Of a stretch of 64,000 bases of DNA, positions 2,736-63,998 are shown in pieces (positions within the stretch are counted from its first letter, which is position 1; every line of letters starts with the position of its first letter). The DNA comes from an uncultured Clostridium sp. (GTDB lineage Bacteria > Bacillota > Clostridia > Oscillospirales > Ruminococcaceae): positions 49-64,048 of the forward strand of contig CAZULQ010000008.1 in assembly GCA_964621265.1 (NCBI GenBank). Direction: 5' to 3'. The position numbers and the translations under genes were made by a program. The notes under the pieces were generated by a model that had not been told where the DNA came from, searched no databases, and was given only the letters and a program-made list of their open reading frames with translations.

Positions 2736-2752
2736 TGATTTTCATTAAAAAT

Positions 2753-2854
2753 CCTCATCTCTCGGATAAACCGCAGGAATTAGCACCTTTTTCGCTTAAC
2801 GCAATCAGGTTGCCGGGCTTCACAGGACCTGTTCCTCCACCACTCTTGATAAGG
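2753..2854 (-). ncRNA. SAM-I (S-box) riboswitch
   Basis: Minus strand reads CTTATCAAGAGTGGTGGAGGAACAGGTCCTGTGAAGCCCGGCAACC...AAGGTGCTAATTCC...AGATGAGG, the S-box consensus, upstream of metK. Confidence 0.96.
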
Positions 2855-2874
2855 TAAATATATTTCTTGTTTAT

Positions 2875-28987: not shown

Positions 28988-29608
28988 TCAGAAAAAAGAG
29001 AAAAATTTATTTTTTATTCCCCTAAGCACTTCAACACATTTGAATTTAACCTCATATTCTTCCGGATTTTTCATTACATCAAGCTCGTCCTCGGAAAAAT
29101 ACTCATAAGCCGCTTTTTTGTCAGTTTCCACTTCCTCCGCTGCCGGTATACAAAGCGGAGGATACATGACACACCACCAGTTTTTCCCCTGCGCTTCACC
29201 GATTGTAACCCTCAGCGCCTCATATTCCCCTGCCGGCATTGTTATATCTTCATAGACACGATTGTCAAACTCCATGCTGACAACCTCGCTCTTAGCACCA
29301 TAGTCAAACCCATTTTCCTCAATAACGTCAAGTACTATATCATTAATGTAGTCAAGGTTCTGCTCTGCCACATTCTCCATTTCTTCAAGCGTATCACATC
29401 CGCCGAAAATTTCTTCTGAGTGCTCAAGAAGCTCGTCCCTCACCTTCAGCTTGAGATTCTGGTCTTCTTCGCTGTCCGAATTTGCAAGTATGTGCATTCT
29501 CAGAACGTTTTCCTCAAGTCCCGAAAGAGTATTCTCAAAGCCTGCCAGATTTGAAAAGAATATAGCCGAAACAAGTCCGCCAAATAAAATAATGTCTGTT
29601 TTTTTCAT
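28988..29608 (-). CDS. spoIIR: Stage II sporulation protein R
   Basis: VLRMHILANSDSEEDQNLKLKVRD, MPAGEYEALRVTIGEAQGKNWWCVMYPPLC; start refined to ATG 29608. Confidence 0.95.
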   Translation of the reverse strand: MKKTDIILFGGLVSAIFFSNLAGFENTLSGLEENVLRMHILANSDSEEDQNLKLKVRDELLEHSEEIFGGCDTLEEMENVAEQNLDYINDIVLDVIEENGFDYGAKSEVVSMEFDNRVYEDITMPAGEYEALRVTIGEAQGKNWWCVMYPPLCIPAAEEVETDKKAAYEYFSEDELDVMKNPEEYEVKFKCVEVLRGIKNKFFSFF

Positions 29609-29668
29609 GTCAATCACCTCGGTTAAAGAATTGTCCTGTAAAACAGACATTATTCATTTTCTTAAAAA

Positions 29669-32023: not shown

Positions 32024-33859
32024 TCAAACCATTTTTGAAAGTGTCATGTAATCGAATACATTAACAACACCATCACTATTTACGTCTGCTGATTCAGCTG
32101 TGAATTCAAAGCCTTCAACAGTAACGCCTACCATATACTTCTTGAGCGCTTCAGCATCGTCTGTTGAAACCATGCCATCGTTGTTGTAGTCATATGCTGT
32201 ATTTGTTTCTTCTACAACTGCGTCAGGTGTATATGTAATTTCGATTGTTTCGAGGTAAAGAGGAACTGTTGAGCCCCACCAGTAACCGATTTCAATGTTT
32301 CCGCCTGTGATACCATTGCAGATATCAGTGTCAGCGAAGTTAATTGTGTAAACTGTATTTGTACCGATGTATTCGTTGATGTCCTTCTGATACCAGTTGC
32401 CGTTTGAAACCATGCCGATACCCATGATGAGTGTATCGATTGTGCCAACTGTTGAGCGGAGGTTAATCTTGATGTTTTCAACTGTGCCCTTTGAGCAGAT
32501 TTCGTCGAGGTTGAATTTGTAAAGCTTGCTTGCTTCGTCTGAATAGTCAAGCTTTGCATTGATTGAGTATACTTCTGTGATTGTGTCTGAATCTGAAGCT
32601 GTTGTTGTTTCTGTTGTTGTAGCTACTGTGCTTGCCTTTGATGATGAAGATGCGATTGTTGCTGTTGTAGTTGTAGTAGTTGTTGTAGCTTCTGTTGTTG
32701 CAGGAGTTGTAGATGTAGTAGTAGTTGTTGTAGCTTCTGTTGTTACTGTAGTAGTTGTTGTTGTAGTTGTTGTAACTTCTGTTGTAGTTGTAGCTGCTTC
32801 GTCAGCGATATATGTAACTGTAATTGTGTTAAGAATAATTGTATTTGATGTGCCGTACCAGTAACCGATTTCAACATTGCCGTTTTCAAGACCCATGCAT
32901 GCGCTTGTGTCGCCAAAGCTTGCTGTGTATGACTTAACGCCTACTGTTGTGTTAACGTCATTCTGATACCAGTTGCCATTAACCACGCCTGACATAGATA
33001 ACGAAATTGAACCGAGAGCTGATGCTGAACGGAAGTTTGCATCGAGACCGATGATTGTGCCCTTAGCTGCGATTTCGTCGATGTTGAATGAGTATGACTT
33101 GCTGTCGTTTGATGTGTAGTCGAGAGTCTGTCTGATTGTGAATGTTTCTGTAACTACTTCGCCTTCAGGAAGTACAACTGTTGTTGTAGTTGTTGCTTCT
33201 GTTTCAGGAGCAGTTGTTGTAGTTGTTGTTGTAGTTGTAGTAGTTGTTGTAACCTGTGTTGTTGTAGTTGTTGTTACAGCTGATGTCTTTGTCCATACTG
33301 CTGCAAATACGATTTTATCTGATGAAAGGATTGCAGGAACTTCGAATGCTGAACCAGCTGTGTATGTAACGCCGTCATACTTCCAGCCGCTGAATGTGTA
33401 ACCGTCATATGTGAACTGGTTTTCAGGAAGAGTAATTGTTGTGCCGTATGTAGCGTCAACGTAGAAGTTTGCGCTGCCTGCTGAAGTTTTGCCGCCCTTG
33501 CCTGTGAAAGTGATTGTATATGTGCTTGGTTCCCAGTTAGCTACGAATGTGAGGTCGTATGAAGGCATTGTGTACTGAGCACCTGTTCTGACTGTTTCGC
33601 CTGTCTTTGGAACATACCATGACTTGAGGTCGTAGCCGAGTCTTGAGAATCTTGATGAATCTGCCGCATCGAATGTTGTGTTGATAATCTTTTCGAAGTT
33701 TACTTCAGATGCACCAACGATGCCGTCAACATCGCCTGCTGTGTAAGTAAGTGTGCAGTATGTAACTGCGTGTACTGTCAGACTTGTAAACATTGAAACT
33801 ACCATGAGGATTGAAGAAATAACTGCGATTGCTCTCTTAAAATTAACTGTTCTTTTCAT
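32024..33859 (-). CDS. Secreted non-catalytic dockerin protein: 2 InlB-B (Listeria-Bacteroides) repeats, Thr linkers, 2 CBM79-like modules, dockerin
   Basis: Signal peptide MKRTVNFKRAIAV...VHA; GYDLKSWY...FVANW and GYTFSGW...AAVW repeats; two ~118-aa modules ending GYW(Y/W)G; DYNNDG...DVNSDG duplicated Ca-loops; start refined to ATG 33859 (AAGGAG SD). Confidence 0.85.
   Translation of the reverse strand: MKRTVNFKRAIAVISSILMVVSMFTSLTVHAVTYCTLTYTAGDVDGIVGASEVNFEKIINTTFDAADSSRFSRLGYDLKSWYVPKTGETVRTGAQYTMPSYDLTFVANWEPSTYTITFTGKGGKTSAGSANFYVDATYGTTITLPENQFTYDGYTFSGWKYDGVTYTAGSAFEVPAILSSDKIVFAAVWTKTSAVTTTTTTQVTTTTTTTTTTTTTAPETEATTTTTVVLPEGEVVTETFTIRQTLDYTSNDSKSYSFNIDEIAAKGTIIGLDANFRSASALGSISLSMSGVVNGNWYQNDVNTTVGVKSYTASFGDTSACMGLENGNVEIGYWYGTSNTIILNTITVTYIADEAATTTTEVTTTTTTTTTVTTEATTTTTTSTTPATTEATTTTTTTTATIASSSSKASTVATTTETTTASDSDTITEVYSINAKLDYSDEASKLYKFNLDEICSKGTVENIKINLRSTVGTIDTLIMGIGMVSNGNWYQKDINEYIGTNTVYTINFADTDICNGITGGNIEIGYWWGSTVPLYLETIEITYTPDAVVEETNTAYDYNNDGMVSTDDAEALKKYMVGVTVEGFEFTAESADVNSDGVVNVFDYMTLSKMV
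32590..33280 (-). repeat. Low-complexity Thr-rich linker triplet repeats (32590-32800 and 33170-33280)
   Basis: Runs of GTT/GTA on the plus strand = ACA/ACT Thr codons in frame. Confidence 0.85.
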
Positions 33860-33910
33860 AATAATAACACTCCTTAACTTATTCGCCTGACAGGTTATTA
33901 TCAAGTATAT

Positions 33911-33951
33911 AAAACAAAAACGGCGTCTTTTTTGTAGCAAAAAAGACGCCG
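33911..33951 (-). terminator. Intrinsic terminator in the riboswitch expression platform
   Basis: CGGCGTCTTTTTTG-loop-CAAAAAAGACGCCG stem followed by TTTTTGTTTT on the minus strand, between aptamer and SD. Confidence 0.88.
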
Positions 33952-33992
33952 CTAATATAGCTTAATAATAACATTTGTAATTAATACAAGTG

Positions 33993-34082
33993 TCAGCAAC
34001 TGGCTGTCGTACCGCTTATTGTTCAAGCGGGTTAGACCCTTAGCTTTGCGTCCTTACCTTTCAGTAAGTTTGCCCATTATTC
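33993..34082 (-). ncRNA. c-di-GMP-I (GEMM) riboswitch
   Basis: Minus strand GGGCAAACTTACT-GAAA-GGTAAGGACGCAAAGCTAAGGGTCTAA-CCCGCTT...AAGCGG-TACGACAGCCAGTTGC matches the GEMM consensus (GAAA tetraloop, GACGCAAAG, GGxCTAA, CAGCCAGTTGC). Confidence 0.93.
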
Positions 34083-34197
34083 AATTTACTTTCTTTACAT
34101 CTGAACTTAAAATTTATTTCAACTTGAAGCTTTGTGAGTTTTAATTTTTGTTTTCTCTTAAGCTTTGTTTTTAAATCTTGTGTTCTTCTGTGTCTAT

Positions 34198-34226
34198 ATA
34201 ATACCACTAAAACGGTTTCGTGTCAA
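34198..34226 (-). promoter_or_regulatory. SigA promoter for riboswitch leader/dockerin gene
   Basis: TTGACA-17 nt-TATTAT with TGn extension. Confidence 0.75.
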
Positions 34227-34551: not shown

Positions 34552-34884
34552 ATGTCTGTAAAAATAACAGAGGATGAAAAAAGGATTATTGCGCTGCTCT
34601 CTGGCGAGATTGACCATCATAGTGCAAAGGGGCTCAGGGCAGAAATTGATTTTTCTTTGCGTGAACGTCATCCACAGGAATTAATTCTCGACTTTTCGGA
34701 AGTAACCTTTATGGATAGTTCCGGAATCGGTCTTGTTATGGGACGCTGTAAGCTTATGAACGAGCTCGGGGGAACTGTCACCGTAAAAAATCCCCCTAAC
34801 TATATAAGAAAGGTCATGCGCCTTTCGGGTATAGACCGCATTGCGACTATTTCAGGCAGTAAGGAAGGAGCATGTCACAAATGA
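34552..34884 (+). CDS. spoIIAA: Anti-sigma-F factor antagonist SpoIIAA
   Basis: LSGEIDHHSA, VTFMDSSGIGLVMGR (phospho-Ser motif). Confidence 0.95.
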   Translation: MSVKITEDEKRIIALLSGEIDHHSAKGLRAEIDFSLRERHPQELILDFSEVTFMDSSGIGLVMGRCKLMNELGGTVTVKNPPNYIRKVMRLSGIDRIATISGSKEGACHK

Positions 34885-35318
34885 AAACCATAAACGAAAT
34901 GAAAATCAGCTTTCTCAGCAAATCAGAAAATGAAGGCTTTGCGAGAACGGCAGTTTCTGCATTCTTTGCTCTGTGCGACCCGTCGGTCGAGGATATAGCA
35001 GATATAAGGACGGCAGTTTCCGAAGCTGTCACAAACTGTATAGTTCACGCTTATCGTGGTACGACAGGAATTATTGAAATAACTGCAAAAATACTTGAAG
35101 GCAACGAATTTTACATAAGAATAAAGGATAAGGGCTGTGGCATACCTGATATAGAAAAAGCGATGGAGCCGCTTTATACCTCTGCACCGCTCGAAGAACG
35201 TGCAGGGCTCGGATTTGCTGTCATGGAATCATTTACAGACGTTTTAACCGTTAAAAGCGAACCTGACAAGGGAACAGTAATTACAATGAGAAAAAAGCCC
35301 GGTGAACACAATGAATAA
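34881..35318 (+). CDS. spoIIAB: Anti-sigma-F factor/kinase SpoIIAB
   Basis: SENEGFAR, TAVSEAVTNCIVHAY, DKGCGI, AMEPLYT, ERAGLGF; start refined to ATG 34881. Confidence 0.95.
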   Translation: MKTINEMKISFLSKSENEGFARTAVSAFFALCDPSVEDIADIRTAVSEAVTNCIVHAYRGTTGIIEITAKILEGNEFYIRIKDKGCGIPDIEKAMEPLYTSAPLEERAGLGFAVMESFTDVLTVKSEPDKGTVITMRKKPGEHNE

Positions 35319-35961
35319 ACCATCAGCAGAGGAACATCTGGGACTGGTACATCTTTGTGCTAATCGTTTTCGTGGACGAGGAATCGAATATGACGACCTG
35401 TATTCTGCCGGCTGTATCGGCTTACTAAAAGCCGCTGACGCATTTGACTGCGAAAGGGGCGTGAAATTTTCAACCTATGCAGTACCCGTCATACTCGGTG
35501 AAATAAAGCGGCTTTTCCGTGACGGAGGAGCTATAAAGGTAAGCAGAAGCTTAAAGGAGCTTTCACTGCGAACTGTCCGCAAGCGCGAAGACCTTTCCAA
35601 GACGCTCGGGCGTGAGCCGACTATCAGCGAACTGAGTCACGCCATGAACGAAAATGAGTGCGACATAGCAGAAGCGCTTGCCGTAAGCCTTCCGCCCGTC
35701 TCGCTCACAGACAGCTCCGATGAAAATGGTAAGGAGCTTGATATAGCAGTTCCCTCACCCGATACAGAAATAGGCGATACAATTGCGCTCAGACAGGTAC
35801 TTTCTATAATGGAAGAAAAGGACCGTTCCCTTATAATCTTAAGATACTATAAAGGGAAAACCCAGACAGTCGTTGCAAAAGAGCTCGGTATGTCACAGGT
35901 TCAGGTTTCAAGGCGTGAGAAAAAACTGCTCGGATTTATGAGGGAACAGCTTTTAAAGTAA
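35311..35961 (+). CDS. sigF: Forespore sigma factor F (short N-terminus)
   Basis: RGIEYDDLYSAGCIGLLKA, FSTYAVPVILGEIKRLFRD, IKVSRSLKE, TQTVVAKELGMSQVQVSR; third gene of spoIIA operon. Confidence 0.9.
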   Translation: MNKPSAEEHLGLVHLCANRFRGRGIEYDDLYSAGCIGLLKAADAFDCERGVKFSTYAVPVILGEIKRLFRDGGAIKVSRSLKELSLRTVRKREDLSKTLGREPTISELSHAMNENECDIAEALAVSLPPVSLTDSSDENGKELDIAVPSPDTEIGDTIALRQVLSIMEEKDRSLIILRYYKGKTQTVVAKELGMSQVQVSRREKKLLGFMREQLLK

Positions 35962-58579: not shown

Positions 58580-60400
58580 TTAACCCAATTTAGTTTCGCC
58601 GATAAGTGCACGTCTTAAAAGAACGCAGTCCATTGAGTTTATAAGACCATCGCCTGTGCAGTCAGCATTGAGCATAGCTGTTTTACCAAGAGGATTTTCC
58701 TCTGAATCTGCAATAAACATCATAAGAGCTACTATGTCAGCAACATCAACTAGACCATCTGCATTCACGTCGCCTCTGAGTGTTACAGAAGAGCCCGCAA
58801 CAGGTATTGCATAAACACCGTAAATTGTAGCTGACTGAGCAGTTGCACTTACAAACATATTCTTCATATCAGCAAGAGCAACTTCATTAGCTTCAAGTGT
58901 TTCAGTAATGTTGTTATAGTCAAAATATGCAAGGAAGCTGTCCTCTTCATTTGCTGTAACAGTATACCAGCCGCCCTGGAAAATAACTGTCGGTGCAACG
59001 TCTGAGTCATGAACAACTACAAGCTTGTAGTTTTCATTCACATAATCCTTCCAGCCGCTTATAGTGAAATTTTTCCACGCGGCAATTTCCTTACCTTCGT
59101 CAGCACGGAAAAGTTCAACCCAGTCACTGCCGATGTTAACATCATCCCATGAGAATACAGGCTTTACATATTCCGCATAATCAGGAAGCTTATATCCTGT
59201 GATGCCGAGTGTGTCCATCATAGCCGCAACAACAGGCTTTGAGTTAGGATACCATGTATTTGTTGCTCTGTAAACATAGCCGTGTGCTTCACCTGTGCCG
59301 TTATATTCAGCATTGTTATCCCAGAGTACGCAAGGAATGCCTGCATCCTTGGCTCTTGAGAGATAATACTTAGCCCATGCAACTCTTGAGTCAGTATTTT
59401 CAAAGTCAGAAGCACTGAATTCGCCGATTACAATCGGAGCACCCTTACTGCTTGAAATACCCTTTAAGCTGTTGAAAAGACTGTCAAGGTGATATTCATA
59501 GCTTTCGCCCCAGCCGCTCGAACCAGGGAATTCATGATTAGCCTTGTCTGATGTATCCATTGTGAAGAAATAAGGCGCATATGCATGAACTGAAAGCGCT
59601 ACGTTTCCTGCACCGCTTGGGATTTCAATTGCGTTTATAGCCTCAGCTGATGAAGAAGCACAGTAGCCAGGGAGCATGAGCATACGCTCTGCGTTCTGAG
59701 CTGAACCCTGTCCTCTTACAGTTTTTATAAATTCAGCATTGAGGTCATTGATATACTTTCTTGAATAGCTGTCACCTGCGCCCCATTCAACAGAGCTTCC
59801 GAGACCTGTCTGACGAGGCTCGTTCATACCCTCAAAGATAAGGTGCTGGTCATAGTCAGCAAATGTTTCTGCAACCTGTGCCCAGATGTCAGTAAGCTTG
59901 TTCTGAGCGTCTGCATATGTAGCATCTGTAAACTCAGCAACATTTACCCATTCCTCATGATGAACATTGATAATAATGAACATTCCGAGTTCATAAGCAT
60001 AGTCAACGTTTTCCTTTACGTAATCGAGCCATTTCTGGTCGATTTCATAGAAATCGTTTGCTTCATCGTAAGTAAGGTGCTGATACCATGTTATTGGTAT
60101 TCTTACTGTATTGAAACCGCCTGCCTGAACAGTTTCAAAAAGCTCCTTGGTTGGTACCGGGTTGCCCCAGCTTGTAACAAATTTTTCCGGCGCCGCATTA
60201 ACCTTGAGGTTAGCGTTTGTAGCGTCGAATGTGTTACCGAGATTCCAGCCGATTTTCATCTGAGAAGTAATTTCAGCAGATGAAAGTCCTGAAAGCGTTG
60301 CCGCATCGACTGTTTCTTCGACATTTCCTGATACACCTATCATACACATAAGACAGGCAGCCGAAGTCAGGACTGACATGATTTTCTTTTTGATTGACAT
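58580..60400 (-). CDS. GH5 (subfamily 4-like) endoglucanase with an extra ~125-aa module and C-terminal dockerin
   Basis: Signal peptide; GWNLGNT, WGNP, RIPITW, INVHHE, FEGMNEP (acid/base), SVHAY, IGEF (nucleophile), LWDN; GDVNADG...DCTGDG dockerin. Confidence 0.93.
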   Translation of the reverse strand: MSIKKKIMSVLTSAACLMCMIGVSGNVEETVDAATLSGLSSAEITSQMKIGWNLGNTFDATNANLKVNAAPEKFVTSWGNPVPTKELFETVQAGGFNTVRIPITWYQHLTYDEANDFYEIDQKWLDYVKENVDYAYELGMFIIINVHHEEWVNVAEFTDATYADAQNKLTDIWAQVAETFADYDQHLIFEGMNEPRQTGLGSSVEWGAGDSYSRKYINDLNAEFIKTVRGQGSAQNAERMLMLPGYCASSSAEAINAIEIPSGAGNVALSVHAYAPYFFTMDTSDKANHEFPGSSGWGESYEYHLDSLFNSLKGISSSKGAPIVIGEFSASDFENTDSRVAWAKYYLSRAKDAGIPCVLWDNNAEYNGTGEAHGYVYRATNTWYPNSKPVVAAMMDTLGITGYKLPDYAEYVKPVFSWDDVNIGSDWVELFRADEGKEIAAWKNFTISGWKDYVNENYKLVVVHDSDVAPTVIFQGGWYTVTANEEDSFLAYFDYNNITETLEANEVALADMKNMFVSATAQSATIYGVYAIPVAGSSVTLRGDVNADGLVDVADIVALMMFIADSEENPLGKTAMLNADCTGDGLINSMDCVLLRRALIGETKLG

Positions 60401-61295: not shown

Positions 61296-63998
61296 TTACT
61301 TTCCAAGCTGTGAGTAATTAATAATCATAGCAACATAGTTCATAATCAGAACACTGTCAGATGAGTCAATAACTCCGTTTTTAGCACAGTCTGAGTTAGC
61401 TAATGATACGTCGGAAAGTGAATTTGTTGTCGAATTGAGAAGATACATATTAATTGCTACAACGTCTGCAACGTCAACTGACTTGTCATCATTAACATCA
61501 CCGTACTTAGTAGCAGTTACATTAGGAACTGTTGCACCCTGAGATGATGTTGTTGTAGAAGTTGTTGTCTTGATTGCAATTGTTGTGGACGGTGTTGTAG
61601 TTGTTGCAATTCCCTGATTATCAAGTGAATATTCACATGTCACTGACTCAATTGTAATCGGGCTGTTACCCCACCAGTAACCAAACTGGAATATACCTGT
61701 ATCATATTCGATTTCATCCTGAATTGATGACACATCAAATACATACTTACCCGAGTTTACAGATGAAGCTGTGAGATCAAGCCAGTTGTCAGCATTGCTT
61801 GTTACTGAAATACCGCCACCGTATGAGATAGAATCTGATGTATTAAGCTTAACAATAATCTTTTCAGCCTTTGCGCCACTTGGAACAAGCTCTGAAAGTG
61901 AAATCTTATACATCTTATTTGTTTCGCTTGAACTGTCAAGCTGAGTATTTACATTCACAACTGTTGAGCCTTCTGAAGAAGGTGCTGTTGTTGTTCTTGT
62001 TGTAGTAGTTGTTCTGATTGTAGTTGAAGTAGTTGTTGTAACCTTTGGAGCTGTAGTGATTGTAGTAACAGATGCACCTTCCTTTGAGTAAATGCAGGTT
62101 ACAGATTCAATTGTAATAGGACTGTTGCCCCACCAGTAGCCAAACTGGAATATACCTGTACCGTATTCAATTTCATCCTGGATTGATGATACATCAAATA
62201 CATACTTGCCTGAATTTACAGATGAAGCTGTAAGGTCAAGCCAGTTGTCAGCATTGCTTGTTACAGAAATACCGCCGCCGTATGAGATTGATTCTGATGT
62301 ATTGAGCTTAACTATAATCTGTTCAGCCTTTGCACCGCTTGGCACAAGCTCTGAAAGTGAAATCTGATACATCTTGTTGTTTTCGCTTGAACTGTCAAGC
62401 TGAGTATTTACTGTCACAACTGTTGAGCCTTCTGAAGAAGGTGCTGTTGTTGTTCTTGTTGTAGTAGTTGTTCCACCCTGGTTATTTGATGTTGAAACAG
62501 TAGTAGTCTTTATTGTTGTAGTAGTAGTTGTTGTGACCTTTGGAGTTGTAGTAGTGGTAGTTGGCTGTGTTGAACCGCCGTCTACGCCAGGAACAGAAGA
62601 AGCAATTGACTGTCCTGAACCGTATTTAAGGTAAAGACCTGCAAGTGCGCCAACAAATGCTGCGTTATAGTCTGTTGCAACTTCAGTATATTCATACTTT
62701 TCAACGTCATCAACATAAGAGTCATTTGAGTCAGGACCGCCAACAAGCGCACCTACGAGAACGTGCTTGAATGGAACGCCCTGATTTTGTGACGGGAAGT
62801 TTGAGTAGCCTGAAGCCGCTCTGTGGTGAGGTTTTGTAACAGAATTGCTGTCATAGCCTACCATGTAGCAGTAACCTGCACTGTTATTACCAAAGAGATA
62901 TTCCATCTGTCCCTTTGCCCATGCTGAATAAGTTGAACTGTTCTTATACTTGTCATAAACAAGACCTACAAGCTGAGTTGCTGTATTGTATCTTGCAGAG
63001 CCCCAGTTATTACGGCATGCATAACCGCCTGATGTGTTGAAGCTGTTCTTGTTTGTATCAACGTTTGCTGATACTCTGTCCCACTCATTTGCGTAGATTG
63101 CATTAACTGCAGGCCATACGCTGTCCCAGCAGAGCGGATAGTCAGATGTATAGGCATAGTTTGACTGAGAAATCCAGTTTGCGCAGTCTGACTTGTATGA
63201 AGATGTGTTTGTAGCCTTGTAAAGTAAGATTGAAGCAAGAGCTAAGTCATCAAGATAGCTTGTACCTGTATAGTATGACTGTGACTGATGATTTGCCTTG
63301 TTATTTGACTTTGCAAATGCGTAAAGAGCCTTGGCATATGTAAGGTCCTCAGAGTTTCCGAAGTTAATGTAGTTCATTGCAAGTGCCGCAGCTGTTTCAG
63401 CAACAACGTCTGTACAAGGATTGCTTGATGTTGCAAAGTAAGCAGGTCTTGCAAGAGTCTGGCTTTCAGGTGAGCACCACTGTGCATGGTCAGTATCACC
63501 GTCACCAACCTGATAACAGAACGCCTGAACGCTTGAACCGCTCATTACAGTACATCTCTTGAAGTAGTCACAGAAATAATCTGTGATAGTCTGGAGGTGA
63601 CCCGCCTGTCCTGTCTTTGTATAGGCATCCTTGAATTCGTAGTAGCCCCAGCCGAGCATTGTAGCCGAGTAAGCACCAGGAAGACCAAACTTAACGTGGT
63701 CACCTGCGTCGTGGAAGCCACCGCTTAAATCAAGTGTACCGTATGGAGTTGAAACAGCTGAGTCATAAGTATGACAGTCATCTCTCCAGTTGAGCTGTGA
63801 TGTTTCTCCAACCTGTCCGCCGCACATGTTTGCGTCGTAAAGATAGAGTGAATACTGAAGTGCCTTAGCATAGTTTACGCTTGAAGCAGCTTCAATAACC
63901 TGTGTTTCTACGGCTGTCATAGGAACTAACGCCGTAGCGGCAACTACAATACCTGTTACCGCAGCTTTGATTCTGTTCAAAAGCTTTTTGCCTTTCAT
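61296..63998 (-). CDS. GH9 endoglucanase with two tandem CBM79-like modules and C-terminal dockerin
   Basis: Signal peptide; DLSGGFHDAGDHVKF, PHHRAAS, LVGALVGGP, YVDD...EVATDYNA; Thr linkers; duplicated module ending FQFGYWWG; YGDVNDD...DCAKNG dockerin. Confidence 0.94.
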   Translation of the reverse strand: MKGKKLLNRIKAAVTGIVVAATALVPMTAVETQVIEAASSVNYAKALQYSLYLYDANMCGGQVGETSQLNWRDDCHTYDSAVSTPYGTLDLSGGFHDAGDHVKFGLPGAYSATMLGWGYYEFKDAYTKTGQAGHLQTITDYFCDYFKRCTVMSGSSVQAFCYQVGDGDTDHAQWCSPESQTLARPAYFATSSNPCTDVVAETAAALAMNYINFGNSEDLTYAKALYAFAKSNNKANHQSQSYYTGTSYLDDLALASILLYKATNTSSYKSDCANWISQSNYAYTSDYPLCWDSVWPAVNAIYANEWDRVSANVDTNKNSFNTSGGYACRNNWGSARYNTATQLVGLVYDKYKNSSTYSAWAKGQMEYLFGNNSAGYCYMVGYDSNSVTKPHHRAASGYSNFPSQNQGVPFKHVLVGALVGGPDSNDSYVDDVEKYEYTEVATDYNAAFVGALAGLYLKYGSGQSIASSVPGVDGGSTQPTTTTTTPKVTTTTTTTIKTTTVSTSNNQGGTTTTTRTTTAPSSEGSTVVTVNTQLDSSSENNKMYQISLSELVPSGAKAEQIIVKLNTSESISYGGGISVTSNADNWLDLTASSVNSGKYVFDVSSIQDEIEYGTGIFQFGYWWGNSPITIESVTCIYSKEGASVTTITTAPKVTTTTSTTIRTTTTTRTTTAPSSEGSTVVNVNTQLDSSSETNKMYKISLSELVPSGAKAEKIIVKLNTSDSISYGGGISVTSNADNWLDLTASSVNSGKYVFDVSSIQDEIEYDTGIFQFGYWWGNSPITIESVTCEYSLDNQGIATTTTPSTTIAIKTTTSTTTSSQGATVPNVTATKYGDVNDDKSVDVADVVAINMYLLNSTTNSLSDVSLANSDCAKNGVIDSSDSVLIMNYVAMIINYSQLGK
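61636..62473 (-). repeat. Intragenic direct duplication (about 380 bp unit, 459 bp period) encoding the two CBM-like modules
   Basis: 61636-62014 and 62095-62473 align nearly base for base, with mostly synonymous differences. Confidence 0.92.

Follow-up and report, generated by a model that had tools for sequence, protein, structure and literature searches.

What does a c-di-GMP riboswitch do in front of a gene for a cellulosomal protein in which no enzyme can be recognised, and in which direction does it switch? The locus that raises these questions lies on the minus strand of a 64,000-nucleotide stretch of DNA, referred to here as the window, from a cellulolytic Porcipelethomonas/UBA1394-like gut bacterium with a 2.2-Mb genome. 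That genome holds 91 dockerin matches, at least five cohesins detectable with Pfam, and a set of cellulase families comprising 9 GH9, 1 GH48 and 11 GH5; it also encodes a flagellin and, in the form of 7-9 GGDEF proteins, enzymes of c-di-GMP signalling. A setting like the amylosome of R. bromii was considered for the dockerin protein and rejected because GH48, GH9 and GH5 are present.

The locus is a monocistronic, riboswitch-regulated unit, the outer elements of which are the following:

34198..34226, minus strand: sigma-70 (SigA-type) promoter, made of TTGACA, a 17-nt spacer and a TG-extended TATTAT, with consensus matches at 11/12 positions
34085..34191, minus strand: A-rich 5' leader spacer of 107 nt, which runs from the inferred transcription start to the aptamer
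33857..33875, minus strand: ribosome-binding region, with the SD AAGGAG at 33875-33870, the second copy of an 11-nt repeat, UGUUAUUAUUA, at 33869-33859 and the ATG at 33859-33857
32024..33859, minus strand: coding sequence, stop codon included, of a 611-aa secreted non-catalytic cellulosomal protein, P0001

The promoter ranks best among the nine promoter-like sites of the scanned region, and the position of its -10 box was used to infer the transcription start. The leader spacer that follows is 55% A, 13% G and 11% C, compared with 31% A on the minus strand of the window. A preliminary description of this DNA had proposed a SigA promoter (34198-34226), an A-rich spacer, a GEMM aptamer (33993-34082), an intrinsic terminator (33911-33951), an SD and a secreted protein of 611 aa, and we located every one of these elements either in place or a few bases off. 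Additionally, metatranscriptome Logan contigs from one study cover pieces of the P0001 coding sequence, and a 182-nt contig with a depth of ~3 spans 33947-34128, which includes the aptamer and part of the leader; these are low-depth contigs from which transcript ends and levels are not readable, and DNA carry-over is possible. Contig depth peaks at 34000-34083 and 33160-33330, and these peaks stem from other organisms, through sequence that is conserved or of low complexity.

Further along the leader lies the aptamer:

33992..34084, minus strand: c-di-GMP-I (GEMM-I) aptamer, Rfam RF01051, 73.4 bits, E 1.6e-12

The covariance-model match covers the full model (positions 1-87 of 87), at more than twice the gathering score of 35 bits, and the aptamer contains both the GAAA tetraloop hairpin and the GACGCAAAGC core. 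All six pairs of the tetraloop hairpin (CUUACU/GGUAAG) are kept in 18/18 related leaders, and five of the six show compensatory changes, with two to three pair types each. When RNAalifold was run on these 18 leaders it found the terminator as well as the tetraloop hairpin; the second aptamer helix was not recovered by RNAalifold alone, but is paired in the CM alignment. The ligand is contacted at G20, A47 and C92 in Vc2 numbering, and a G instead of an A at position 20 provides selectivity for c-di-GMP (PMC6140456). Counting on the CM alignment, we find a G at the equivalent of G20, where it precedes the GC of GGCAAAC, and an A at the equivalent of A47, where it follows GACGC; the C of GUUGC is only a tentative counterpart of C92. 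The aptamer is predicted to bind c-di-GMP.

While the aptamer is of an ordinary RNA family, its set of targets is new. The 99.6%-complete genome (G000) has three RF01051 matches that make up two loci, and a search of the same genome for c-di-GMP-II riboswitches gave no match. The only other riboswitch locus is a tandem aptamer pair, in a leader with no terminator, before the gene of a 250-aa cohesin+dockerin adaptor (P0002), which is itself a weak match to Pfam Cohesin (19.5 bits, cut-off 24.1), but has orthologues that pass. Twenty-one other genomes of the genus were searched, of which 20 have the riboswitch; with the loci of G000 counted in, the reading frames downstream of it belong to these two classes, P0001-type protein and cohesin+dockerin adaptor, in about 38 cases out of 40. 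Sixteen further species of the genus share the P0001-type unit of leader and gene, and dockerin genes lie downstream of the riboswitch in three other genera of the family too. The P0001 gene is not a one-off; it is part of a conserved two-gene regulon. The genus has a cultured type species.

This regulon also contains A20 variants: one is, in G000, the second of the two tandem aptamers, and another is the aptamer of one orthologue. GEMM-I aptamers with A20 bind cGAMP or both ligands (PMC6140456), which would fit a reading in which our aptamer senses 3'3'-cGAMP instead of c-di-GMP; in a variant of the same reading it binds nothing and the leader is a constitutive attenuator. In either form we find this very improbable: the aptamer in the window has the G at the position 20 equivalent together with a high c-di-GMP-I model score, and its conservation with covariation over at least 20 species argues against decay.

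If the aptamer binds c-di-GMP, the next question is what binding does to the gene, and here the element to consider is the terminator:

33919..33953, minus strand: intrinsic terminator stem-loop of 16 pairs (7 G-C) with a loop of 3, followed by a T-run
33909..33918, minus strand: U-tract of the terminator, TTTTTGTTTT

The scanned region has no other terminator-like site. The terminator is present in 17/17 orthologous leaders, and the hairpin alone has a folding energy of -22.1 kcal/mol. A gap of 38 nt separates it from the aptamer, so that the two do not overlap, and the MFE structure of the complete leader contains both. At the same time, the 5' arm of the terminator (33938-33953) is complementary to GGACGC in the aptamer core, and the adjacent UUAGC to GCUAA, with the result that arm and core form a predicted antiterminator. 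A transcript that ends before the 3' arm folds at -39.3 kcal/mol when pairing between arm and aptamer is allowed and at -29.4 kcal/mol when it is not, a gain of ~10 kcal/mol for the truncated transcript. In all 18 of 18 related leaders this predicted pairing exceeds the shuffled-arm mean, but it is individually weak: in 8/18 leaders at least 12 of 60 shuffles reach the observed value, and in about half of the leaders, taken singly, the complementarity is indistinguishable from that of shuffled arms. RNAalifold on the 18 leaders did not recover the antiterminator.

The hallmark of the Cd1 OFF switch is that aptamer and terminator folds coexist, and this distinguishes it from pilM, an ON switch (PMC9262584). 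Our predicted folds display what defines a Cd1-type platform, that is, coexistence of the two structures plus an antiterminator between the aptamer and the terminator 5' arm. Because the non-overlapping aptamer and terminator resemble Cd1, and because pairing between the 5' arm and the aptamer core is possible, we lean towards an OFF switch, in which c-di-GMP would terminate transcription. With such an architecture, high c-di-GMP would lower production of the binding subunit, and the predicted logic would reverse the intuitive view that a sessile cell attaches more. An OFF switch on an adhesin-like protein is contrary to the usual pattern, in which high c-di-GMP goes with adhesion. The preliminary description had proposed that c-di-GMP controls the loading of a binding-only subunit onto the cellulosome or cell surface, and so links sessile/motile signalling to fibre attachment. 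Gating of a non-catalytic dockerin protein is supported by the anatomy of the locus, by the regulon and by the presence of GGDEF proteins, flagellin and cellulases in the genome.

The opposite sign deserves consideration nonetheless. In an ON switch, c-di-GMP would block termination or open the ribosome-binding site (RBS), and subunit and adaptor would be made upon commitment to a surface. This would agree with general c-di-GMP biology, in which adhesins are usually induced, and ON riboswitches for c-di-GMP and for cGAMP do exist, pilM being one example (PMC9262584). Known ON designs, however, have a terminator and an aptamer that are mutually exclusive (PMC9262584), whereas the two are spaced apart and coexist here. 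Furthermore, the spacer between aptamer and terminator holds no complement to the terminator arm when its sequence is read, the aptamer core being the sole one, and in constrained folds the RBS is more sequestered in the state that serves as a proxy for bound ligand. We therefore consider an ON switch unlikely, and the feature that could still invert the output, or add to it, is the 11-nt repeat at the RBS together with its complement after the terminator. These belong to a group of smaller elements between aptamer and gene:

33969..33995, minus strand: hairpin right after the aptamer, which folds and keeps its pairing in relatives despite varying sequence
33963..33973, minus strand: first copy of the 11-nt repeat UGUUAUUAUUA, a putative extended P1 3' strand
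33886..33904, minus strand: post-terminator segment UUGAUAAUAACCUGUCAGG, complementary to two other leader sites

The post-aptamer hairpin is formed by different sequences across the related leaders, and a conserved GUUAU motif comes next. In a constrained fold, the first copy of the repeat can pair with AAUAAU, which flanks the aptamer on its 5' side. The post-terminator segment is complementary, on the one hand, to the 3' end of the aptamer plus the first repeat copy and, on the other, to the spacer between SD and AUG; its duplex comes to -19.8 kcal/mol, a value attained by 1 of 200 shuffles, the mean of which is -9.4. The combination of repeat and post-terminator complement is significant only in the clade of the window and in the G010/G018 clade, and its sign is ambiguous in the constrained folds around the RBS, which include alternatives. 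Such folds leave room for an added translational layer at the RBS, which may act with either sign.

We now turn to the protein whose production this leader regulates, and for which the following parts can be delimited:

33767..33859, minus strand: signal peptide, about residues 1-31, ending VHA, read from the sequence
33281..33766, minus strand: two tandem Flg_new / InlB B-repeat-like beta-grasp domains, residues 32-193, PF09479
32801..33172, minus strand: CBM79-like (DUF5620) beta-sandwich module A, residues 230-353, by profile homology
32219..32599, minus strand: CBM79-like (DUF5620) module B, residues 421-547, by profile homology and AF2 model
32030..32194, minus strand: type I dockerin, residues 556-610, PF00404

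This architecture is common to 73 homologues and bears out what had been described from the sequence, namely two InlB-B repeats, two CBM-like modules and a dockerin, with no catalytic domain. The signal peptide has a basic N-terminus, a hydrophobic core and an A-x-A-like site, and is conserved in the alignment of homologues. The repeats match PF09479 in two stretches within residues 30-200 (43.4 bits, cut-off 27); AF2 models them with a pLDDT of 93, and their structural matches comprise the InlB B-repeat 2y5p_C (TMt 0.73), the cell-surface protein YwfG and the mucus-binding protein Mub. The dockerin scores 37.1 bits against a PF00404 cut-off of 22.9 (E 3.7e-9), is found in the same place in the genome scan and has two Ca-binding loops, DYNNDGMVSTDD and DVNSDGVVNVFD, as read from the translation; a dockerin of this kind would have a cohesin as its partner. 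A complex prediction that combined the P0002 cohesin (residues 28-172), the P0001 dockerin (residues 546-611) and two Ca returned 0.01, had no controls and is taken to give no verdict. The whole-protein scan detected no catalytic Pfam or NCBIfam family in P0001.

The assignment of the two modules between repeats and dockerin draws on several lines of evidence. They are roughly 125 aa each and 41-42% identical to one another, and module A is flanked by Thr-rich linkers (residues 194-229 and 354-420). DUF5620 is not listed in the whole-protein Pfam scan and is seen, below cut-off, only when the modules are scanned alone (PF18522 at 15.5 and 21.0 bits, cut-off 25; E 4.4e-4 for module B). On the other hand, the homologue P0003 passes PF18522 at 39.4 bits, and nearly all homologues carry precomputed PF18522 matches. 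A profile of the modules matches the CBM structure 4d3l of R. flavefaciens Cel9A with an E of 7.8e-9 over ~103/125 positions, and the AF2 model of module B (pLDDT 94) has 4d3l as its top Foldseek match (E 2.5e-6, TM 0.68). The paired aromatic motif of the modules, GYWWG/GYWYG, aligns with GVWW of 4d3l. The modules are homologous to CBM79 by profile and AF2 fold, and are putatively glycan-binding. CBM79/DUF5620 occurs in ruminococcal cellulosomal proteins, and the ligand of its founding member is beta-glucans.

One could also imagine that P0001 is mainly an adhesin directed at the host or at cells (mucin, another microbe or its own wall), which acts through its repeats and in which the CBM79-like modules are spacers or no longer bind glycans. 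The repeats are by far the most conserved region of the protein, with a mean column identity of 69% versus 40% for the modules, and their structural neighbours YwfG, Mub and InlB point the same way, as does the divergence of the modules, which fall below the Pfam cut-off and the second of which differs in type between P0001 orthologues. Still, the modules retain a confident CBM79-like fold along with the paired aromatic motif, and the organism is a dedicated cellulolytic bacterium, and we find an adhesin of this kind improbable.

Overall, the explanation that we hold to be probable is an OFF-type c-di-GMP riboswitch that gates an enzyme-free, dockerin-borne subunit of the cellulosome. Transcription would start at the SigA-type promoter and run through a long A-rich leader with a canonical c-di-GMP-I aptamer and, 38 nt on, an independent terminator. 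With c-di-GMP bound, the aptamer core would be locked, the terminator would form and transcription would halt upstream of the gene; with no ligand, the terminator arm (GCGUC...UUAGC) and the aptamer core (GGACGC...GCUAA) would join in an antiterminator, and transcription would continue into the gene. P0001 would then be exported through its Sec signal peptide, and its architecture of InlB-B/MucBP-like repeats, CBM79-family modules and C-terminal dockerin with no enzyme suggests that the dockerin would seat it on one of the cohesins of this bacterium's cellulosome, where it would serve in targeting or adhesion. Since the P0001 gene and the gene of the adaptor scaffoldin are the only targets in this genome, and the pairing recurs across the genus, what the second messenger appears to change is the non-catalytic side of the cellulosome, its binding target and wiring, and not its enzymes. 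A bolder proposal, which we put forward as doubtful, is that c-di-GMP is a dedicated cellulosome-architecture switch in Porcipelethomonas and related ruminococci, with a riboswitch regulon made up entirely of a matched pair, the substrate-targeting CBM subunit and its carrier adaptor, which would be put on or taken off the complex as the cell changes between swimming and fibre-attached life, and with tandem G20/A20 aptamers integrating two cyclic dinucleotides.

Regulation of cellulosome composition is known mainly from SigI/RsgI sigma/anti-sigma factors and two-component systems in Clostridium; to our knowledge, almost nothing has been learned about it for ruminococcal-type cellulosomes. Our literature search found no papers linking c-di-GMP riboswitches to cohesin-dockerin genes (the query 'scaffoldin' was uninformative, as it matched 'scaffolding'). 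A 2025 review names 'riboswitch-linked dockerins' merely as a future engineering idea (PMC12484212), one which nature seems to be using already. We describe a conserved c-di-GMP riboswitch regulon of non-catalytic cohesin/dockerin parts only, in a motile, cellulolytic gut genus. The regulon offers a directly testable connection from lifestyle signalling by a second messenger to the attachment to fibre or the wiring of the cellulosome, as well as a natural, compact RNA part for the control of designer cellulosomes.

How do these components compare with known systems? The modules have their nearest relative in the CBM79 of Ruminococcus flavefaciens FD-1 Cel9A (4d3l, 4v1k, 4v1l; DUF5620), with which they share profile homology, the best structural match and the aromatic motif, but they are only ~20% identical to it, the module is duplicated here and P0001 has no glycoside hydrolase. 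As a whole, the protein recalls CttA of R. flavefaciens and Sas6 and Sas20 of the R. bromii amylosome, which are non-catalytic, dockerin-bearing binding proteins. Like P0001, these are secreted, combine substrate-binding modules with a dockerin and are thought to tether the cell or complex to substrate, but their binding modules are different, and no control of CttA, Sas6 or Sas20 by a riboswitch or second messenger was found in the searchable literature. P0002, in turn, is comparable to the ScaC-type adaptor scaffoldins of R. flavefaciens, which have a single cohesin: it is likewise small and secreted and combines one cohesin with one dockerin, yet it differs in its own weak Pfam Cohesin match and in its terminator-free leader with tandem aptamers.

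Among riboswitches, the closest counterpart is Cd1, a transcriptional OFF switch of the same Rfam family that precedes the flgB flagellar operon of Clostridioides difficile. Both have a complete aptamer, an independent, coexisting terminator tens of nucleotides later and an antiterminator formed by the aptamer and the 5' strand of the terminator (PMC9262584). Unlike Cd1, which acts on a flagellar operon, the riboswitch described here targets just one gene, which encodes a binding protein with a dockerin, and its leader has an extra conserved hairpin and the 11-nt repeat at the RBS; switching is, in our case, a prediction. With regard to the target, c-di-GMP riboswitches are known before genes of adhesins and colonisation factors, such as Vc1-gbpA in Vibrio cholerae and Bc2-cap in Bacillus thuringiensis, as well as the class II switches of C. 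difficile before CD2831/CD3246 and pilA1. Those adhesion factors are sortase- or cell-wall-anchored or freely released, and most are induced by c-di-GMP. Our locus resembles the group of Vc1-gbpA, Bc2-cap and CD2831 in that a riboswitch stands before a secreted or surface adhesion factor that is non-enzymatic or binds polysaccharide; it departs from it in that the dockerin of P0001 would hold the protein on a cohesin scaffold, and in that the same second messenger is predicted to repress it.

All elements that the preliminary description had listed for this riboswitch-gene unit are present on the minus strand of the window, including the A-rich spacer, and are arranged as follows.

34226-34198, minus strand: promoter, TTGACA-17 nt-TATTAT with TG upstream, ranked first among the promoter-like sites of the region
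34085-34191, minus strand: A-rich leader spacer (107 nt, 55% A) between an inferred transcription start and the aptamer
33992-34084, minus strand: c-di-GMP-I aptamer (Rfam RF01051, whole model; 73.4 bits, gathering score 35, E 1.6e-12)
33953-33919, minus strand: intrinsic terminator, a 16-pair stem then a T-run, the sole terminator-like site of the region
33875-33870, minus strand: Shine-Dalgarno sequence AAGGAG, preceding the ATG
33859-32024, minus strand: 611-codon frame, opened by AAGGAG and the ATG at 33859

The covariance-model scan bore out the GEMM aptamer, which is the one c-di-GMP-I match in the entire window; a SAM-I riboswitch (RF00162, 77.1 bits) lies at 2752-2855, minus strand. 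Since the downstream neighbour, a plus-strand gene for a BspA-type LRR protein, is convergent and the upstream neighbour is divergent, the unit is monocistronic. That upstream neighbour is a spoIIAA-spoIIAB-sigF-like operon (34552-35961, plus strand; STAS anti-anti-sigma, HATPase anti-sigma and sigma-70-family factor) running divergently from the riboswitch promoter, and a SpoIIR homologue lies downstream of the unit (28988-29650, minus strand), so that sporulation genes occur on both flanks.

The N-terminus of the encoded protein (P0001), basic, then hydrophobic and ending in VHA, reads by eye as a typical Sec signal. The two InlB-B repeats claimed earlier were recovered at residues 32-193 as repeats of the Flg_new family (PF09479; Listeria-Bacteroides, InlB B-type), at 43.4 bits and with an AF2 pLDDT of 93. 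Taken singly, a repeat fits the InlB B-repeat in structure 2y5p with a TMt of 0.73; YwfG, a protein of the cell surface, and Mub, which binds mucus, are also among the structural matches. The dockerin is likewise there, of type I, with two Ca loops at residues 556-610 (PF00404, 37.1 bits), and family scans of the protein detected no catalytic family, as had been proposed. Two modules of about 125 residues, set apart by two Thr-rich linkers, had been called CBM-like, which holds and can be refined: they are best read as divergent members of the CBM79 family. Scanned singly, they match Pfam DUF5620, the family of CBM79, below its cut-off; a profile built from the modules of 13 homologues matches the R. 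flavefaciens Cel9A CBM (4d3l/4v1k/4v1l, E 7.8e-9), and 4d3l is the best structural match of the AF2 module model (pLDDT 94, TM 0.68). The GVWW of 4d3l aligns with the GYWWG/GYWYG motif of the modules, and the tryptophans aligned there presumably line the CBM79 glycan site. The founding CBM79 is a module of this GH9 enzyme (PMC9026390). Module B (32219-32599, minus strand) is 41-42% identical to module A (32801-33172, minus strand), and the second module of most orthologues is a distinct subtype, 22-29% identical to module B, which suggests a lineage-specific replacement or duplication.

RF01051 has three matches in this genome and c-di-GMP-II has none; besides the window aptamer, the matches form a tandem pair on contig 2, here also numbered along the stretch L004.

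Contig 2, 164866-165040 (L004:1867-2041), plus strand: two c-di-GMP-I aptamers in tandem (64.5 and 70 bits)
L004:2113-2865: gene for a 250-aa cohesin and dockerin protein (P0002), directly downstream of the tandem aptamers

P0002 is secreted, with an N-terminal cohesin followed by a dockerin; its Pfam cohesin match is weak (19.5 bits), and its orthologues score 33-48 bits. Just upstream of the tandem riboswitch (contig 2, about 162000-164500; L004:148-1500 and upstream) are a cohesin and dockerin ORF (241-aa frame) and a gene for an SH3-Big_3-dockerin protein, so that the P0002 gene belongs to a compact group of cellulosome genes without catalytic function. In both riboswitch leaders of the genome, promoter and aptamer are separated by a long stretch rich in A and poor in G and C, the second at L004:1800-1870.

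This association extends across the genus, Porcipelethomonas (GTDB UBA1394), a gut genus that adjoins R. flavefaciens, R. champanellensis and R. callidus and whose type strain has been cultured (PMC9723785). The riboswitch was found in 20 of the 21 other genus genomes searched. For every match we took the downstream DNA and set its first ORFs beside the domains of P0001 and P0002: about 38 of about 40 loci precede either P0001 orthologues (class A, 16 other genomes) or adaptor-like proteins with one to three cohesins and a dockerin (class B), the exceptions being a giant ORF of the M60-peptidase/fn3 type and a locus without a nearby ORF. One genus genome has a CAP-dockerin protein behind a class A leader. 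In a family-wide sample (riboswitch in 42 of 151 genomes), three further genera carry dockerin genes behind it: a P0002-like 250-aa cohesin-dockerin protein, a Flg_new-dockerin protein behind a tandem pair, two transglutaminase-dockerins and one other. Elsewhere in the family the riboswitch precedes genes for pilin-like proteins, recognised by an N-terminal FTLIE motif, and for large surface proteins, as expected for the class. Other genera also hold clusters in which a riboswitch leads each of five genes for surface proteins of 860-1060 aa, and double and triple tandem c-di-GMP-I aptamers (G160:C2:2062000-2082651, stretches L098 and L099; G062, with 10 matches; G161:C3:11701-12239). Dockerin genes make up about 4-5% of genes in the window's genome (some 91 among an estimated 2,000), and it is unlikely that both of its riboswitch loci precede such genes by chance; the conservation between species carries more weight. 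Relatives do not count as independent samples.

The assembly (2.21 Mb, 99.6% complete) contains 91 dockerin matches, at least five Pfam cohesins, nine GH9, one GH48 and 11 GH5, and from this content the organism is judged a true cellulosome producer. Within the window, a GH5 cellulase (610-aa frame, about 58604-60190, minus strand) and a GH9 (923-aa frame, 61332-63872, minus strand) have dockerins and no riboswitch. Flagellin genes and seven to nine GGDEF proteins make c-di-GMP signalling and a motile state plausible.

In the window aptamer, a G precedes the GC of GGCAAAC and an A follows GACGC; by our count on the Vc2 sequence, these correspond to G20 and A47. G20 is typical of c-di-GMP-selective aptamers, and A20 of cGAMP-sensing or bispecific ones (PMC6140456). 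At position 20 the first tandem aptamer of P0002 has G and the second has A, which is also the base in one class A orthologue (G019); the tandem pair may act as a two-ligand logic gate.

As for direction, aptamer and terminator share no nucleotide (gap 38 nt), and the MFE structure of the whole leader contains both. Such coexistence separates the C. difficile Cd1 OFF switch, which our leader resembles in its predicted fold, from the pilM ON switch, where the two are mutually exclusive (Landgraf et al.; PMC9262584). In a transcript ending before the terminator 3' arm, the 5' arm is predicted to pair with the aptamer core (GCGUC/GGACG, adjacent UUAGC/GCUAA, UUUUGCU/GGGCAAA; −29.4 to −39.3 kcal/mol). 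Pairing of this kind is predicted in 18 of 18 related leaders, with the arm on either core GGACGC or the aptamer 3' strand GCCGGUUGC; shuffle controls discriminate weakly. Bound c-di-GMP would block this antiterminator and let the terminator form; from the coexisting elements and the antiterminator pairing we consider the P0001 riboswitch probably an OFF switch.

A further, translational layer may exist. An exact 11-nt repeat, UGUUAUUAUUA, follows the post-aptamer hairpin (33973-33963, minus strand) and recurs between Shine-Dalgarno and start codon (33869-33859, minus strand), and a post-terminator segment (33904-33886, minus strand) shows complementarity to each copy as well as to the aptamer 3' end (duplex −19.8 kcal/mol versus −9.4 shuffled, reached by 1 of 200 shuffles). 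Statistical support is confined to the window's clade and the G010/G018 clade, there with different, covarying sequences; the pattern was not seen in half of the orthologues examined, and constrained folds gave no clear direction of the segment's effect on the RBS. The P0002-type leaders examined lack a terminator. Their sequences contain a GCCCUU segment able to sequester the AAGGG Shine-Dalgarno site, and an AAGGGU mimic inside the aptamer, which suggests translational control.

The dockerin of P0001 implies recruitment to a cohesin, and its CBM79-like modules and InlB-B/MucBP-like repeats a binding role, the protein carrying no enzyme domain; we take its closest functional analogues to be binding-only dockerin proteins such as CttA and Sas6/Sas20. 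Because the co-regulated gene encodes an adaptor scaffoldin, c-di-GMP most likely changes both the cargo and the wiring of the cellulosome. If the OFF reading is true, P0001 and P0002 would be made at low c-di-GMP, for example in cells that swim unattached and have to capture substrate, and shut down as c-di-GMP rises.

As an RNA, the riboswitch is an unremarkable representative of a family that is already well known, and there are earlier examples of adhesion factors under riboswitch control. Our literature search, over 8.4 million full texts, found no link between c-di-GMP riboswitches and cohesin or dockerin genes: a 2025 cellulosome review offers riboswitch-linked dockerins as a design idea (PMC12484212), and DUF5620, but no riboswitch, comes up in a 2026 preprint on the cellulosomes of ruminococci. 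What is new, relative to the literature searched, is a conserved, previously unreported set of targets for this riboswitch class.
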